Below are positions 1,391-27,357 of a stretch of 64,000 bases of DNA, one piece after another. Origin of the DNA: a virus (Duplodnaviria; Heunggongvirae; Uroviricota; Caudoviricetes); IMG/VR virus record IMGVR_UViG_3300034082_003579. One strand, given 5' to 3'. Both the position numbers and the translations under genes were made by a program. How positions within the stretch are numbered: the first letter of the stretch is position 1; every line of letters begins with the position of its first letter. The notes under the pieces are model-generated. The model did not search any database, had not been told where the DNA came from, and saw nothing but the letters and a program-made list of their open reading frames with translations.

Positions 1391-1605
1391 TAGTCATTCC
1401 CGCAAATGTTTCGAGCCGTTGCAACATGTTTAAATTCCATGTGTGGAGCAATGTCATTGTCAAAAATCTGTGCCATGGTGTTCCAGAGATATGTGCGTTC
1501 CTCTTGAGTCATACCAGATGACAAGCCGCCAACTTCAGATTTTATTATACCGTAGTCGTGTCTGTAAGTGAAACACATGTTGGTGATGATATTTTCTCTG
1601 TTCAT
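1390..1605 (-). CDS. hypothetical protein
   Basis: 71-aa ORF filling the operon gap. Confidence 0.65.
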   Translation of the reverse strand: MNRENIITNMCFTYRHDYGIIKSEVGGLSSGMTQEERTYLWNTMAQIFDNDIAPHMEFKHVATARNICGND

Positions 1606-1607
1606 GA

Positions 1608-1973
1608 TTATTTTTCCAGGAAAGGTTCGAGATTCGGCGGAGTCCAGCCAACTGGCTTGAGTACTTTGCCATCTTCACGTTTGCGCACTTTGCCTGTTTC
1701 ACTGTCAATTTTGGCAAAGTTTGTTCGCATTACTTCTTTCCATGCACCTTCGGCATCTGCACCCATGGAATGAATAGCACCGATAGTGACAACCAAAATG
1801 TCAATCAAGGCATCCAGCTGTTCCAACATGTCGCCGTCATTTTCTGCAGCAATCAGTTCTTTGTATTCTTCCTCAATGAGATTTTTATACATCTCAAACT
1901 GCCGTTTATCAAACCTTTCAACTGATTGGTCGCAGGCTCGCATGAACTTTTCTTGGTCTCTAAACGGATTCAT
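1608..1973 (-). CDS. MazG-like / all-alpha NTP pyrophosphohydrolase
   Basis: LIEEEYKEL...LDALIDILVV metal-binding ExxE...D pattern, WKEVMRTNFAK and GKVLKP; start set at ATG 1973. Confidence 0.8.
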   Translation of the reverse strand: MNPFRDQEKFMRACDQSVERFDKRQFEMYKNLIEEEYKELIAAENDGDMLEQLDALIDILVVTIGAIHSMGADAEGAWKEVMRTNFAKIDSETGKVRKREDGKVLKPVGWTPPNLEPFLEK

Positions 1974-2406
1974 TGGCTTGATCCTCTGTGTGATATGGAC
2001 CGCGATAAGCATAGCGTTGCAAGGTAATCAATTTGGGACAGAATACAGTTTCCCATTCTCTCCCTTGTTTGATTTGATACCATCCGGCTGCATACCAGCT
2101 TTTAGATCTTAACTCGCGTGTCCACAGCGGTACTTGATGCTTGACATCATATATGGCATTAAATGCCCGACTACTAGTGCTGTATCCGTGTACTGAGTTG
2201 GATGAAACAGTTGGTTTTTTCTTTGATACTGTTTCAAAATCAATAGATACGTTTTGTTTAATTGTGTTTATGCTTTTAAAACTCTGCACTTGATTGTTGA
2301 TTTTTACTGAAAACCCACCTGGTCCTGCTTCGATGTTGCCAATTTTTTGATTGCCCTGTTTGAGAATCCAATACTGATTAGGTACTACTGTTTTCGCTAC
2401 GATCAT
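1960..2406 (-). CDS. hypothetical phage protein
   Basis: 148-aa ORF overlapping both neighbours. Confidence 0.75.
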   Translation of the reverse strand: MIVAKTVVPNQYWILKQGNQKIGNIEAGPGGFSVKINNQVQSFKSINTIKQNVSIDFETVSKKKPTVSSNSVHGYSTSSRAFNAIYDVKHQVPLWTRELRSKSWYAAGWYQIKQGREWETVFCPKLITLQRYAYRGPYHTEDQANESV

Positions 2407-3400
2407 CTAGCACTCCTTGATATGTTTTATTCAACCAGCGAGCATACTGCTCAGCCGATTCACTGGCCTTGACAAGCTCATATTTGCCACAAAATTTCAT
2501 AAATCTAATTCCCACTTGTCCAATGTCCTTGTGACTGATCTGAGAACAAATGCTTTCGTCTACTTGCTGTTTGATTTCTACTGGCTGTGCATTTAAATCA
2601 ATCAACAAGCGATTGCGTTCGTAGTCGTCTAGTACACGATGTTCTACTCCGTTGTGGTCAACCCAGCGTTGAAGCATGAGGTTATTCCACGCATATCCTT
2701 GTTTTTTTCGATCTTCAAATGCTTCAGTTAATCCTACTTTGTTTTTGGTGCCCTTGACACGCACACCCGGATATGCACTAAACACATTGTCACTGGTATC
2801 GCCTCGCATGCATTTTTCAAACAATAGCCATTCTGGATCGGGTATGACTTTGGGTAGTTTGGTTTTTTTATCTACTACAGGTCGGCCTTTGGCATCAAAT
2901 ATTCCACGTACAGTCAGTAATTCATCTGTTATACCGTTGTATTGATCAACATTTTCAGCCAGCAGTTGAACAAAGTCAGTATCGCTTGAAATAATTACAT
3001 GATGATCTTGTGGGTGTAGTGCAATCCAACGTGCAACAATATCGTCGGCCTCGGCATTTTCGTTTCTGATTACTGAACAGTTGGTACCGTCAGCCAGGTA
3101 TTTAGTCAAGTTGTCAAACGTCTCCCAAAACAGCTTGTCCTCGTCCTGTTCCCGGGGACTCTGCGCTGCTCGTGCATCTGCCCGGTTGCGCTTGTACGGA
3201 GCATAGATATCTTTGCGCCAACTACGCCCTTCTAGTGCAAAAACCACATGATCTGCTCCGAATTTTGTGACTACCTTGTTTACAGCACTGAGCGTGATGT
3301 GTAAAGCATAACCTACTTTCTCCCACTCGTCGCTGGCACGAAAAGCCACATGTCGGGCTCGGAAAAACATGTTGGCGGTGTCAATTAAAAGATATTTCAT
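2378..3400 (-). CDS. rnh: T4 RNase H-like 5'-3' exonuclease (FEN/Pol I N-terminal family)
   Basis: LLIDTAN, WRKDIYAPYKRNR, EADD, SSDTDFVQL, GDTSDNV motifs. Confidence 0.9.
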   Translation of the reverse strand: MKYLLIDTANMFFRARHVAFRASDEWEKVGYALHITLSAVNKVVTKFGADHVVFALEGRSWRKDIYAPYKRNRADARAAQSPREQDEDKLFWETFDNLTKYLADGTNCSVIRNENAEADDIVARWIALHPQDHHVIISSDTDFVQLLAENVDQYNGITDELLTVRGIFDAKGRPVVDKKTKLPKVIPDPEWLLFEKCMRGDTSDNVFSAYPGVRVKGTKNKVGLTEAFEDRKKQGYAWNNLMLQRWVDHNGVEHRVLDDYERNRLLIDLNAQPVEIKQQVDESICSQISHKDIGQVGIRFMKFCGKYELVKASESAEQYARWLNKTYQGVLDDRSENSST

Positions 3401-23125: not shown

Positions 23126-24067
23126 CTATATGCGAGAAAATACCTGTGCCAAGGCTTGACCGCCACGCAATGATGTTAGTTCGCCAGGACGTTTAAATTC
23201 TAACCAAGTGCTGGCAGCATCGATGTGAAAACTTTGAATCAATTCAAATCCCAGCAGTTGGCAGTGTTCTACAATTGCCTGTTTAGGTGTATAGCATTTA
23301 AAACCTGATTCTGCCAGTTTAACAGCACCAGCTCGGTTGCAGTCATTGATAGTCAGGGCAATGACACCGCCTGGTTTGAGTTTGTGAAACAACTCGCGTA
23401 GATATGCATTTACTATTTCCAACGGTTTAAAGTTAAAAAAGTTATAGATCAAACAAAATGCAAACTGTCCAGACGGTAATTGTGTTAGGATGGGATCGTG
23501 CGCACTTTCTGTCACTGCATAGGTTCGCAATCGCCGTTGGTATTGATCATTAAATCTCAGCAATGCAGGATCCAATAACTCTTGATCTGTGTCAACAAGA
23601 TACAACGGATCACATCCCACTAAGAAATTAATCCAATCTTCTCGTCCGGGCCGAATGATCATGCCAGCGTGGTGCCAATCGCCATATCGTTGTAGTCTAG
23701 CAATGATTAATTCTTTTACTGTAGCAGTCAACGACTGTCGACGATCTAGGATATATTCATTGCTGTCATACTGCATCATTTGCCGATATAACTCGGTACT
23801 ATTTTCGTAGTAGACTGACTCGTGCTGCTGAATCAGCAGCTCAATTTGACTTTTAATTTGGTCAGCAGTCTGATCAAAATTGTCTAATTTTTTTAAAATG
23901 TCTTGGTAGTTGGCTTCCAGTTGTTCAGTTAAATGTGTAAATTGTATTTCATTTGATTGAACAGTGTACAACACCGGTGCCAGCTTGTCGTGAGCCAATG
24001 GCACAGTATCAAGGGGAATCATATCCTCTAGAAGACTTTTATAAGAAATTAACGAACTCAGTTTCAT
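23126..24067 (-). CDS. coiled-coil plus class I SAM methyltransferase-like protein
   Basis: GMIIRPG, LYLVD, FAFCLIYNFF, LKPGGVIAL. Confidence 0.6.
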   Translation of the reverse strand: MKLSSLISYKSLLEDMIPLDTVPLAHDKLAPVLYTVQSNEIQFTHLTEQLEANYQDILKKLDNFDQTADQIKSQIELLIQQHESVYYENSTELYRQMMQYDSNEYILDRRQSLTATVKELIIARLQRYGDWHHAGMIIRPGREDWINFLVGCDPLYLVDTDQELLDPALLRFNDQYQRRLRTYAVTESAHDPILTQLPSGQFAFCLIYNFFNFKPLEIVNAYLRELFHKLKPGGVIALTINDCNRAGAVKLAESGFKCYTPKQAIVEHCQLLGFELIQSFHIDAASTWLEFKRPGELTSLRGGQALAQVFSRI

Positions 24068-26733
24068 TAAAACTCAAACAATGATTGAAATGTGTTATCT
24101 GTGTTGGTTGCGCCAGCCAAATCCCAGTCCAGTACTCCCAACAAATTATCGACCTTGCCATCAACTACAGTAGATTCCATTTCGGCATCGTCAAATGGCA
24201 GTTCACAAAACCACCTGGGTAAATGTTGCTCGTCGGTGGGATAAGCAATACTAGTCCAACCTAAAGGATTGCTACGTAATTTGCAAACAATAACTTTCAT
24301 ACCATCCACCACTTGTAAAGAATAATTATCGCTGTTCATTCTGCGCAGATTATTCCAGTTGATAGCAGCGCGAACATGTCCTGGCATGTTGGTCTTGCCT
24401 TCTTTGATTTCTTTGTTGCCGTACATGGTCAAGTTGTTGACACGCTTTGGGCTGCCTTTTTCCCAAGCTGGTCGTTCCTTGAATTGATATTTGAACTCAC
24501 GTATTTTTTCAATAATAGGTTCTTTCTCCGATCCATTGAGAACATCGTTAAGAATGTCGCTAAGAAATTCTTGGATAATCTTAGGAGTATCTGACCGCTT
24601 GAGATCTAGGCCCATGGCTTTGACCTTGCCAGGCTTGCCGCCTACGTCATACCGCTTGCCGTCCTTGTCGTAGAACAACACAGCATATCGTTTCTTGGTG
24701 ATAAACAGACCCTTGATAGCAACAATTTCTCGACCACCTTGAATGATAGAACCCATGTCTCTGGGACAATGAAAAGCCTGTTCCATAAAGCCTGGGAAAC
24801 TGAGATTGACCTGTTCTGCAATGCTGTCATACAAGGCCACTGCAACATCCTTGTTCCATTCCATACGCCCTTGCGCAATTTCTTCTCGAAGTACAGGATA
24901 AGCAGAAAAGTAGCAAGAGTCTGTGTCACCGTATATAATGGCATTGCCCACATGATCGTACCGGCCTGTTATACACTCGTTGACATAGGCATCCATGTGC
25001 CGGGCAATGGTTCTACCTACCAAGGTTGTTGATTGTCCAATGCGTTTGTCAAAGAATCTACAACCTGGATTTAGAATAGCACCATACAAGCTATTCAAGT
25101 TGATTTTCTTGACCAACTGACGCTTGTCCCAGTATTCTTCTTGTTCATGATTGCCTTCGTCTTTTACTCGTGTCAATGTGGCCTGCATTTCTTTACGTTC
25201 GGCATACCATCGAGCCAACAAGCCGGGAATGATACCTTCTTTGTCATAGGTAAAGATAGTGCCGTTGGCACTGAGCACCCATGGTTTGTTGCTGTCAAAA
25301 ATCACATGCCAAAATTCTGCAGCTGACATGACATTGGTGGTACCATCTTCCCAGTCCACTGTCAATTCAAATCCGCGATTCTGTTCCATGACCGCTGTGT
25401 ATTCCAAAGTACCAAACAGTCCTTCCCATGCTGCAGCAAAACTCATGTTCCGGCCGATACGATCATTTATGTATTGGTCTGTGGCAATGGGTCTCAGTTG
25501 TCCCACAATAGTTTCCGGACCCATATTTAGGGCACGAATTGCTGACGGATACAAACTGTTGATGTCGATTGATCCAATATAGTCGTGCAAACCTTTTTTA
25601 GGATAAGCAACATAAGCGCCGGCTGCCTGCGTGTCCTGATTGTCACCGTACTGCTTGCGATTTGGGACCACCATGCCATGTGCATGTGCTTCGTTGATAA
25701 TGGCCTGTTCGGTCACAGCCACAGCACCAGTTGTGGTCGGCAACAGCACAGTATTTTCATGCGCAATTGAATTTGCCAAATCTAGAAACTTTAATTTTTT
25801 ATCAATCTTGTTGACAAGCACCACGTCTTGTCTGTTGTATTCAATGAAAGTTCGAAAATTTAGATTGTACAGCTGATCCAGTGTACCTTCGAACGCTGTT
25901 TTGCTACCCAGATCTTCGTATTCACCAATGGCATCCAAGCTGTAGCTGTGTCGTTCTTCATAGGTGTATTTGCGATACAACTGCATATAGTCCATGTGGA
26001 CTCGACCCACAAGATCAAATGTAAGACTTTCTTTTCCGAAGCGTTCAAATGTACGTGCCTTGGGCATTTGCCCCCACAGGCAAAATCTGCGTGTATCGTC
26101 CTTGCTCAGTATGCGAGTGACTCGATTCACTGTGTAAGGAATATCATAACCTTCGCTGTTCCATCCCGACAATACGTCTGCATCGTCAATTAGATGCAAG
26201 AATGAATCCAACAAGTCTGCTTCACGTTCAAACATAAATGTGTTGTCAAAGTCAGCAGCAATTTCTCTAGCAGTTTCCATGCTCATGCTCTTGGGAGGAA
26301 TAGCCAAGGTAACCAACTGGTCCAGCCAATCCAAGTAGACTGTGATGGCTGTGATGGGATTGAACGCTTCCTCAGTGCTGCTAAAGCCGCGCACTGGATC
26401 AAAGTCTGTTTCAATGTCAAAGAAAGCTGTGTGTAATTTTGGAGCATCTGCGCCTAGATAGTTTTCAGCCAAGCATCGAAATACAGGATTGATATCACTT
26501 TCATAGACAGTTTTACCCGAATGCATGCGCAGCTCTTTGCGAAACTCCTTGTTGTTTCTGCTGCTGAATCTAGCCACTGGTGTACCAAAAATACTGCGAA
26601 ACTTTCCTCTAGGATCGTCGTAGTAAAAAATGTATGTGGCTGGAAATTCTTGATATTTGCGAACGCCATTAATGCGTTCAACTATGTGAATTCGATCTTT
26701 GTCTCGATCAAACAGTGCGTCGACGTATGATAT
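24067..26733 (-). CDS. family B DNA polymerase (gp43-like), ATA start
   Basis: FFDIE (ExoI), WNSEGYD, YNRQD, DINSLYPS, KINLNSLYG, YGDTDS, KKRY. Frame open from ATA 26733 (I-S-Y-V-D-A-L-F) with AGGAG 7 nt upstream. Confidence 0.95.
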   Translation of the reverse strand: MSYVDALFDRDKDRIHIVERINGVRKYQEFPATYIFYYDDPRGKFRSIFGTPVARFSSRNNKEFRKELRMHSGKTVYESDINPVFRCLAENYLGADAPKLHTAFFDIETDFDPVRGFSSTEEAFNPITAITVYLDWLDQLVTLAIPPKSMSMETAREIAADFDNTFMFEREADLLDSFLHLIDDADVLSGWNSEGYDIPYTVNRVTRILSKDDTRRFCLWGQMPKARTFERFGKESLTFDLVGRVHMDYMQLYRKYTYEERHSYSLDAIGEYEDLGSKTAFEGTLDQLYNLNFRTFIEYNRQDVVLVNKIDKKLKFLDLANSIAHENTVLLPTTTGAVAVTEQAIINEAHAHGMVVPNRKQYGDNQDTQAAGAYVAYPKKGLHDYIGSIDINSLYPSAIRALNMGPETIVGQLRPIATDQYINDRIGRNMSFAAAWEGLFGTLEYTAVMEQNRGFELTVDWEDGTTNVMSAAEFWHVIFDSNKPWVLSANGTIFTYDKEGIIPGLLARWYAERKEMQATLTRVKDEGNHEQEEYWDKRQLVKKINLNSLYGAILNPGCRFFDKRIGQSTTLVGRTIARHMDAYVNECITGRYDHVGNAIIYGDTDSCYFSAYPVLREEIAQGRMEWNKDVAVALYDSIAEQVNLSFPGFMEQAFHCPRDMGSIIQGGREIVAIKGLFITKKRYAVLFYDKDGKRYDVGGKPGKVKAMGLDLKRSDTPKIIQEFLSDILNDVLNGSEKEPIIEKIREFKYQFKERPAWEKGSPKRVNNLTMYGNKEIKEGKTNMPGHVRAAINWNNLRRMNSDNYSLQVVDGMKVIVCKLRSNPLGWTSIAYPTDEQHLPRWFCELPFDDAEMESTVVDGKVDNLLGVLDWDLAGATNTDNTFQSLFEF

Positions 26734-26740
26734 GATAATT

Positions 26741-26763
26741 CTCCTAGTGACTTGTGGCTCACT
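26741..26763 (-). promoter_or_regulatory. translational operator hairpin abutting the polymerase SD
   Basis: AGTGA-GCCACAAG-TCACT-AGGAG: 5-bp stem, 8-nt loop. Confidence 0.6.
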
Positions 26764-26797
26764 GTTGCCGTGTACATGCCCGTTAGGCGAGCGAATC

Positions 26798-27097
26798 CTA
26801 CAGCGTGATCAATCTAATCAATGCTGCTATATCGATACTTATTAACAAAATATAATTGCCCAACATTCCGAGACTTTGCCGAGTCCATGCCGCCCAGGCA
26901 AATACAGCACACTGAGCAATGAACATGGGATACAGCAACAAGAACGGTGGATGTGGTAAAGTAAACGCCATGATTGTGGAACAAGCAATGCTAGTGACCC
27001 AGGCTGCCACTTCCAACACAAATCTCGCAGGCCATATTCGATAGTCCTTTTCTGCCCAGTCAATAATGTCGTATACAATGCCGCGAACATCAATCAT
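26798..27097 (-). CDS. small membrane protein
   Basis: About three hydrophobic segments in 99 aa. Confidence 0.75.
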   Translation of the reverse strand: MIDVRGIVYDIIDWAEKDYRIWPARFVLEVAAWVTSIACSTIMAFTLPHPPFLLLYPMFIAQCAVFAWAAWTRQSLGMLGNYILLISIDIAALIRLITL

Positions 27098-27357
27098 TAT
27101 AGAGTTTTACCCACTGTGGTCAGGATAGTTTCCAACAGTTCATGATCCTGCTGCTCACGACCAAATTCGGCCTTGTGTGCCAACTTGATTGCTTTTTTGA
27201 GAATAGCTGGTTTGATTTCCATTTCTTCGGCCACTGCTTTGATAGTGTCGTTTAGGCCGCCGTTGAGTGTTTCAACTTCGTGCATGATCTGCATGCCTTC
27301 GTTGATGATCTGTGTGAGTTTGGCTTTTTGTTCAGTACTGAATGCGCGATCTGACAT
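27097..27357 (-). CDS. dsDNA-binding protein, T4 DsbA/GapR-like
   Basis: 86 aa helical; IKAVAEEMEIKPAILKKAIKLAHK pattern. Confidence 0.6.
   Translation of the reverse strand: MSDRAFSTEQKAKLTQIINEGMQIMHEVETLNGGLNDTIKAVAEEMEIKPAILKKAIKLAHKAEFGREQQDHELLETILTTVGKTL

Follow-up and report, generated by a model that had tools for sequence, protein, structure and literature searches.

The subject of this report is the start of the DNA polymerase gene in a 64,000-nucleotide (nt) stretch of phage DNA (IMG/VR record IMGVR_UViG_3300034082_003579; the whole stretch is called the window below). The window derives from an uncultured giant phage from lake water, and most of the sequence words sampled from it were found in 22 lake-water metagenome runs. 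On its minus strand lies a family-B DNA polymerase gene that very probably begins at an AUA codon, and before this start is a leader that, to judge from comparison of the sequences, is conserved in about a hundred related phages as a structured RNA element. We propose that the weak AUA start and a polymerase-specific translational operator in the leader together limit polymerase output, and we assign this full reading a probability of about 0.5.

In the program-made list of open reading frames (ORFs), the polymerase starts at GTG 26577 and stops at 24067 on the minus strand. However, its frame stays open for 52 codons past this GTG, up to ATA 26733-26731, which is followed by TCA TAC GTC GAC. 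The in-frame upstream stop is TGA 26811-26809, and no in-frame ATG, GTG or TTG was found between this stop and GTG 26577. In the order of the minus strand, the region consists of TAG 26800-26798, a leader of ~55 nt, AGGAG, AATTATC and ATA TCA TAC GTC GAC. An initial annotation, made from the letters of the window and a list of its ORFs, had reported the ATA start, the 52 open codons, the spacing from AGGAG and the upstream stop, and the coordinates of all of these hold on re-reading the sequence. The polymerase has 77 open codons before its first canonical start, and it is the only one of 65 long ORFs in the window with more than 38. Therefore, the window phage is not a general user of odd starts.

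The objection that ATA is a sequencing error for ATG fails on independent contigs. We found ATA 26731-26733 without difference in separately assembled contigs of four lake metagenome runs (records of 2020 and 2024), although rare variants would escape a check on contigs and the four runs may stem from one sampling campaign. The base on which the initial annotation depended thus agrees in all four, and a one-off assembly error is excluded. Homologous N-termini align with this position, there is no canonical alternative, and a Shine-Dalgarno (SD) sequence stands at a working distance; these are the marks of a genuine start at AUH, by which we mean ATA, ATC or ATT. AUA, or the triplet of AUH codons to which it belongs, is very probably the real start of the polymerase.

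The comparison with relatives bears on the same point. The product of the gene matches Pfam DNA_pol_B (8.6e-36) and DNA_pol_B_exo1 (6.1e-17), and its best solved relative in PDB is RB69 gp43, which it matches over nearly its full length (E 2.8e-63); by these matches it is a gp43-type family-B polymerase. Its nearest cultured relatives by tblastn are giant phages, namely Sinorhizobium phage Phosso, with 52% identity, and further Vibrio phage 2.275.O, Agrobacterium phage Atu_ph07, Pseudomonas phage PA5oct and Rak2-like phages. A blastn search of the region against cultured phage genomes gave no nucleotide-level match, so that these relatives are seen at the protein level only. The Phosso polymerase opens with ATG TCA TAC GTA GAC (M-S-Y-V-D), exactly on the ATA TCA TAC GTC GAC of the window, and the polymerases of Atu_ph07, the Vibrio phage and PA5oct start one residue to either side. 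We then collected 80 IMG/VR and 79 metagenome loci with N-termini 69-93% identical, and these 159 loci open with x-S-Y-V/I-D on the ATA codon of the window. The M-S-Y-V-D N-termini predicted for homologues were therefore seen both in Phosso and in the environmental loci.

The start codons of the 159 loci are ATG (123), TTG (25), GTG (4), ATA (3), ATC (2) and ATT (1), with one locus shifted by one codon. The ATA starts occur in separately assembled loci (L139, L154 and L170), the ATC starts in L130 and L161, and the ATT start in L171. We built a tree from the 597 nt that follow, leaving out the start codon itself; it requires at least five independent origins of AUH and 21 start-codon changes in total. 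In the clade formed by (L139 ATA, L167 TTG) and (L154 ATA, L170 ATA), ATA has been kept across about 0.1-0.2 substitutions per site, and the window's own clade of eight contains five TTG, two ATG and one ATA. The sequence GGAG-A-ATT-ATY-ATH, with three in-frame AUH codons, is common to the window, the L139 clade and L171. The first 60 polymerase residues are conserved from codon 2 onward, and R20 and G23 are invariant down to T4 gp43. Given that residues 2-52 are conserved, the 52 residues cut off by a start at GTG 26577 belong to the enzyme. The first codons of the window differ from those of its nearest relatives mostly synonymously (TCA/AGT, TAC/TAT, GTC/GTA, GAC/GAT), which is the pattern expected of a translated region.

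We also considered the possibility that ATA is not the working start, so that the gene would be crippled in the population or would start at ATC, ATT or GTG 26577. In Escherichia coli, AUA is a poor initiator, and AUA, AUC and AUU give 1-2% of AUG in vivo (bioRxiv 10.1101/063800); an in vitro study reports that AUA can perform much better in an optimized context (PMC5499595). In addition, ATC 26736 has the distance from GGAG (4 nt) that is seen most often in relatives starting with ATG. However, at least 22 lake runs carry the ATA allele, and the contigs of four show it unchanged. The polymerase is an essential enzyme with an unbroken reading frame, and AUH recurs at this codon and persists in a diverged clade. 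GTG 26577 has no support from any homologue and would drop the 52 conserved residues, and a start at ATC or ATT would shift the protein by one or two residues only and leave the conclusion unchanged. A start elsewhere, or a crippled gene, is thus very unlikely.

The leader before this start contains a hairpin 1, a pseudoknot spacer and a hairpin 2 (Table 1). The initial annotation had pointed to the hairpin AGUGA-GCCACAAG-UCACU beside the SD, and this hairpin is real and has the coordinates given for it. It had also described a mini-hairpin further 5', which exists, but the register GCCU/GGGC with a triloop does not stand; the family supports GCUCG/CGGGC with the loop CCUAA, a register obtained from RNAalifold and the covariance-model alignment. 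RNAalifold of 44 distinct leaders gave two hairpins, with compensatory changes in six of seven pairs. We next wrote the structure (5-bp stems and a two-pair pseudoknot) into a first set of 42 distinct leaders, in which 85% of the cells were paired, compared with 23-36% when the partners were slid, and the covariation score was 0.49 compared with 0.05-0.11. When 48 distinct leaders from metagenomes, the second set, were aligned with the covariance model, the result was almost the same (83% paired vs 22-37%; covariation 0.48 vs 0.04-0.07). None of 500 shuffles matched the observed covariation, and 10 of the 12 pairs have changed on both sides across related leaders. The conservation and the covarying stems that had been expected of the hairpin were thus found in related leaders, and they are specific to the polymerase leader. 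The leader has very probably been under selection as an RNA structure.

In hairpin 2, all 42 sequences of the first set keep the three inner pairs, with 13-20 double changes each, and the stem takes at least sixteen different sequences in this set. The loop of hairpin 2 has the consensus GCCAYAAR, in which C2, A6 and A7 are invariant. Hairpin 1 shows compensatory changes (CG/UA/GC) in four pairs. The pseudoknot is formed by a spacer triplet that sits 1-4 nt before the 5' arm of hairpin 2, and all three of its pairs are possible in 91 of 93 leaders, the other two being exceptions. A GCC loop goes with the spacer GGC or GGU in 78 leaders, a GCU loop with AGU or AGC in 11, and an ACC loop with GGU in two; in other words, all 11 GCU-loop leaders have an AGY spacer and both ACC-loop leaders have GGU. 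The GCU/AGY combination occurs in at least three separate places on the tree, and pseudoknot columns 37-38 are 93% paired with columns 49-50. GGAG adjoins the 3' arm of hairpin 2 in nearly all motif-bearing leaders, and in the largest subclass (CCG-GCCAYAAA-CGG-AG) two SD bases lie inside this arm. As predicted from these alignments, the element is composed of hairpin 1, a conserved single-stranded spacer of CAUG type and an H-type pseudoknot that ends at the SD. We also asked whether the conserved CAUG after hairpin 1 is the start of an upstream ORF, and rejected this because the closest relatives carry CAAG or CAGG.

Table 1. Features at the polymerase start of the window (all on the minus strand).
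Feature	Position	Strand	Remarks
Family-B DNA polymerase gene	24067..26733	-	888 codons and stop, read from ATA 26733; T4/RB69 gp43 homologue
ATA initiation codon	26731..26733	-	Very probable start; third of three in-frame AUH codons: ATT 26739, ATC 26736, ATA 26733
Shine-Dalgarno sequence AGGAG	26741..26745	-	7 nt (AATTATC) before ATA
Whole conserved leader element	26742..26799	-	57 model positions; begins one base after first letter of upstream TAG
Hairpin 2	26746..26763	-	AGUGA 26763-26759, 8-nt loop GCCACAAG 26758-26751, UCACU 26750-26746; directly abuts SD
Pseudoknot spacer GGC	26767..26769	-	Pairs with loop GCC 26758-26756, H-type pseudoknot
Hairpin 1	26778..26792	-	GCUCG 26792-26788 / CGGGC 26782-26778, one U.G pair, loop CCUAA
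Upstream 99-codon ORF	26798..27097	-	Hydrophobic; weak YwiC-like match under cut-off; TAG stop 26800-26798

We searched the 64-kb window with cmsearch and found one strong copy of the element (52.5 bits, E 3.5e-17). The next-best match (12.7 bits, E 0.011), at 26099-26125 on the minus strand inside the polymerase coding region, covers hairpin 1 only and was treated as probably a chance match rather than a second element. The contigs of three relatives (136, 95 and 74 kb) contain one strong copy each, always at the polymerase, and a complete 374-kb relative with a leaderless polymerase contains no strong copy. Among 138 non-redundant loci, the element stands directly before the polymerase in 88, with divergent sub-threshold versions in three more, lies 0.17-1.05 kb upstream in eight, and is absent in about 39. 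In the distal cases an extra ORF, of 340 or 192 codons and without a Pfam match, is mostly inserted. Given that, in the four loci inspected, an ATGA overlap couples the extra ORF to the start of the polymerase, the element still heads the polymerase translational unit there, and does so in 96 of the 138 loci altogether. This consistent placement at a single gene is not that of a dispersed repeat.

The element is absent from the cultured relatives Phosso, Atu_ph07, PA5oct and Vibrio phage 2.275.O. A search of positions 26500-27000 against Rfam 15 gave no matches at E up to 10, and full-text literature searches did not find a description of the leader motif, although its absence from these sources does not prove that it is undescribed. 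The leader thus appears to be a conserved cis-regulatory RNA motif that is new to Rfam.

Some individual loci of this set deserve description. The ~340-codon ORF between leader and polymerase is found at L084:967-2004, L009:958-2004, L112:470-1504 and L119:488-1504, in each case with the ATGA overlap and no Pfam match, and the 192-codon ORF, likewise ATGA-coupled and without a Pfam match, is found at L057:1426-2004 and also in L060 and L061. Hairpin 2 of the leader looks degraded in L112, L113 and L119. In L037 (1107-2010), an intact leader (73 bits) and ATG AGT TAT ATT GAT (M-S-Y-I-D) are followed, after codon 5, by an insertion of ~830 nt that contains a 252-codon reverse-strand ORF with Cys-pair and FWHG-like motifs; the polymerase resumes at a new ATG TAT GTT GAT. 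This insertion looks like a mobile, endonuclease-like gene in the first polymerase codons. A group I intron was considered at this site and rejected, given that there were no Rfam matches and a reverse-strand ORF was found instead.

We also inspected the 60 nt before the polymerase start in leaderless loci. Nine of them (L047, L048, L051, L065, L083, L111, L118, L121 and L149) have TTGAC-N17-TAAAAT or TTGAC-N17-TATAAT ending 6-8 nt before the ATG, no SD in these 60 nt, and an ATG start in every case, which suggests that their polymerase mRNAs are leaderless or nearly so. A relative that co-occurs with the window phage in the same lake sample (run X12, record 2, window 26630-26721) diverges upstream of codon 4 and reads TATAAT-ATTAAT-ATG AGC TAT ATA, that is, a leaderless version of the polymerase gene with an ATG start.

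The distance between SD and start codon varies with the start codon. Among loci that have GGAG, to which this count was confined, 52 of the 70 with an ATG start place it 4 nt after GGAG; the spacing is 5-8 nt (mean 6.5) at TTG and 6-7 nt at AUH, with 7 nt in the window. The combination of a strong codon with cramped spacing, or of a weak codon with good spacing, looks like selection that holds initiation at a moderate-to-low level, and this inverse relation fits a tuned and limited polymerase output. To see how the window phage uses SD sequences in general, we examined its 68 long minus-strand ORFs and found a 4-nt SD match within 17 nt of the start in 15 (first start) to 26 (any candidate start), over a background of 8%; the other genes of the window gave too few cases (12 genes) to set a useful background for SD spacing. 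The window phage thus makes moderate use of SD sequences, and the SD of the polymerase is among its strongest.

The initial annotation had interpreted the region as a weak start behind an operator hairpin like that of T4 gp43. The weak AUH start and the conserved hairpin have stood up, but the identity with the T4 operator has not. In RB69 and T4, gp43 acts as a repressor of its own mRNA at a hairpin operator, in the loop of which the bases UAAC, UAAA or CAAC are the important ones (PMC3014915). From the T4 genome we read the T4 operator as AGCCU-AAUAACUC-GGGCU, followed by 7 nt, AAGGA, 6 nt and AUG. Like the gene 43 operators of T4, RB69 and RB49, the element is located beside the ribosome-binding site in the 5' leader of an mRNA for a gp43-type family-B polymerase, is gene-specific and single-copy, and contains a hairpin (hairpin 2) with a 5-bp stem and an 8-nt loop. 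Both kinds of loop also share YAA, which occurs as UAAC in T4 and RB69, as UAAA in RB49 and as CAAC in a variant from in vitro selection (SELEX) (PMC3014915). The loop YAAR of the window's family thus recalls the UAAC, UAAA and CAAC of the gp43 loops, but the likeness is short and could be coincidence.

The differences concern loop, SD distance and topology. The loop is GCCAYAAR in the window clade and AAUAACUC in T4, and the hairpin abuts or overlaps the SD in the window clade, whereas that of T4 is 7 nt away. The window clade also adds a pseudoknot and a second conserved hairpin, whereas a review sees no evidence of a pseudoknot in the gene 43 operator (PMC3014915). The covariance model of the leader gave no match to the T4 gene 43 leader. 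Because the cultured relatives between this clade and T4 are without the element, common descent with the T4 operator is unlikely, and the leader appears not to be a homologue of it.

A closer parallel is found in other self-repressing systems. In T4 gene 32 and in E. coli rpsO, which encodes S15, a small H-type pseudoknot also lies 5' of, or overlaps, the ribosome-binding site, and the product represses itself (PMC3014915). However, the regulated genes are different, there is no sequence similarity, and the window clade has an extra upstream hairpin; cooperative binding at the gene 32 operator further depends on a long A/U-rich tract without structure, and no such tract is seen in the window leader. 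In its architecture, the leader seems closer to these pseudoknot operators than to the T4 gene 43 operator. As for the start codon, E. coli infC, which encodes IF3, and pcnB use AUU start codons. These genes resemble the present case in having a near-cognate AUH start on a protein wanted in small amounts; infC differs in that its weak codon is itself the sensor, through discrimination by IF3.

From the observed position and base of the start, the covarying RNA structure and its single-copy, polymerase-linked placement, we propose the following mechanism. Translation of the polymerase would start at AUA, 7 nt after a strong SD, with the in-frame AUC and AUU perhaps adding a little. The mRNA directly 5' of the SD would fold in two parts, a 5-bp hairpin and a small H-type pseudoknot whose 3' arm adjoins the SD or, as in many relatives, extends into it. 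A protein would bind the conserved unpaired bases and so keep the structure locked against the ribosome-binding site. If T4 and RB69 gp43 are taken as the model, the binder would most plausibly be free polymerase itself. The weak start and the operator would then keep polymerase output low and self-limiting. We consider it probable that the leader is a cis-acting translational control element. A translational operator is favored because the stems vary freely while the unpaired bases are invariant and the SD is contacted or overlapped, which are hallmarks of protein operators. The polymerase is favored as the binder because no polymerase family other than the gp43 type is known for repression of its own mRNA (PMC3014915). 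Autogenous control, with the polymerase as binder and repression as the presumed outcome, is put forward tentatively, at somewhat less than even odds.

Several points weigh against this proposal. The 79-nt leader of the window, folded alone, is no better than its shuffles (z = -0.14), and its minimum-free-energy fold is a fold other than the conserved one. Given that single-sequence folding shows no signal, the case for the leader structure rests wholly on comparison. The relation between start strength and spacing (Mann-Whitney p = 4e-13) comes from a statistic that ignores shared ancestry. Weak starts are no commoner in loci that have the motif (19 of 88) than in loci that lack it (12 of 42), so that start weakness and operator are not obligatorily linked and would form separate layers. 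Autoregulation is altogether missing in some polymerases related to that of T4 (PMC3014915). The strand test by wobble pairs (10 G.U vs 7 A.C) does not by itself fix the strand. Finally, highly conserved unpaired bases are just as compatible with an aptamer for a small molecule as with a site for a protein.

The last of these points raises the question of whether the leader is read by another protein of phage or host, or by a small molecule, for example as a compact pseudoknot riboswitch for the nucleotide pool. Invariant unpaired bases (CA after hairpin 1, the spacer GG, and loop positions C2, A6 and A7) beside freely covarying stems are typical of aptamers, and a compact H-type pseudoknot beside the SD is an architecture like that of small riboswitches. 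However, the absence of Rfam matches of any kind, even at E 10, speaks against a riboswitch, the single-copy and polymerase-only distribution speaks against a global repressor of RegA type, and every candidate ligand is without support from the tests made. We therefore regard another binder as rather unlikely. We also entertained a more specific possibility, which is doubtful: that the 57-nt leader belongs to a new class of compact pseudoknot sensors and ties polymerase translation to a signal in the cell, either as a small riboswitch for a nucleotide-pool metabolite or as a polymerase-binding operator with an origin independent of that of T4, in a clade of giant freshwater phages in which selection has repeatedly co-tuned start strength and SD spacing throughout.

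Another explanation is that the structure does not repress but stabilizes the mRNA, offers the ribosome a standby site, or promotes initiation as an enhancer by keeping the SD open, which would be most useful at weak starts. In the window's subclade the SD is indeed just outside the stem. In many relatives (for example L099, L133, L160, L163 and L169) a box like ATAAGTA/TATAAATA lies 6-10 nt before the leader, so that the element may be the 5' end of the transcript, where hairpins protect mRNA. In the window, this box is found at 26836-26842 on the minus strand, ~37 nt upstream of the leader and within the preceding ORF. ATAAGTA was rejected as a general promoter box, and its lack of enrichment (5 in the window vs 7.8 expected) also counts against a stabilizer. 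Moreover, in the CCG-GCCAYAAA-CGG-AG class the two SD bases within the 3' arm mean that the SD is sequestered, not exposed; the conservation of loop and spacer goes far beyond the needs of a generic protective hairpin; and the motif is not enriched at weak starts. Thus, a role in stability or SD exposure seems unlikely.

The wobble-pair counts, which leave the strand unfixed, would also allow the inverted repeats to act as DNA, either as a single-stranded hairpin at an origin or as the site of a DNA-binding protein. However, variable stems with fixed loops are the opposite of a double-stranded protein operator, and the pseudoknot and the fixed register to SD and start make sense only in sense-strand RNA. 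In addition, insertion of an extra ORF does not part the element from the translational unit of the polymerase. A DNA-level role is therefore highly improbable, and we retain the translational operator as the preferred explanation.

With respect to the genes around the leader, the stop of the 99-codon ORF touches the leader, so that the leader is intercistronic in the window phage. A homologue of this ORF abuts the polymerase start in the relatives L077, L081 and L126, where the leader is absent. A promoter-like sequence, CTGACC-16-TATAAT, occurs at 27096-27123 on the minus strand, with its -10 box overlapping the ATG (27097) of the 99-codon ORF; this may be the promoter of the leader-carrying transcript. 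Two cultured relatives also showed peculiarities in their records. In Vibrio phage 2.275.O (MG592671.1; L004:1369-1500), the deposited polymerase coding sequence (CDS) starts 129 nt upstream of the homologue-aligned ATG (1498), which opens M-Y-I-D-A-M-F-D-R behind AAGGAG, and the annotated start is likely to be too long. In Atu_ph07 (L002:1501-3441), the polymerase is annotated as two adjacent CDS (1501-3198, and 3217 onward), that is, as a split gene in the record.

These results have practical consequences for annotation, because, wherever a member of this large clade of giant freshwater phages has an AUH start, gene finders will overlook that start or cut 52 conserved residues off the polymerase. 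An essential gene that has repeatedly come to start at ATA, ATC or ATT is among the clearer natural examples of selected near-cognate initiation, and the variation of start strength with SD spacing offers a natural experiment on the trade-off between initiation signals. The 57-nt RNA is also a compact object for binding, structure and reporter studies. To our knowledge, autoregulation of a DNA polymerase through its own mRNA has so far been known essentially from T4-type phages. The presence of a structurally different, polymerase-specific element in about a hundred distant relatives suggests that translational control of polymerase dose is a recurring solution.

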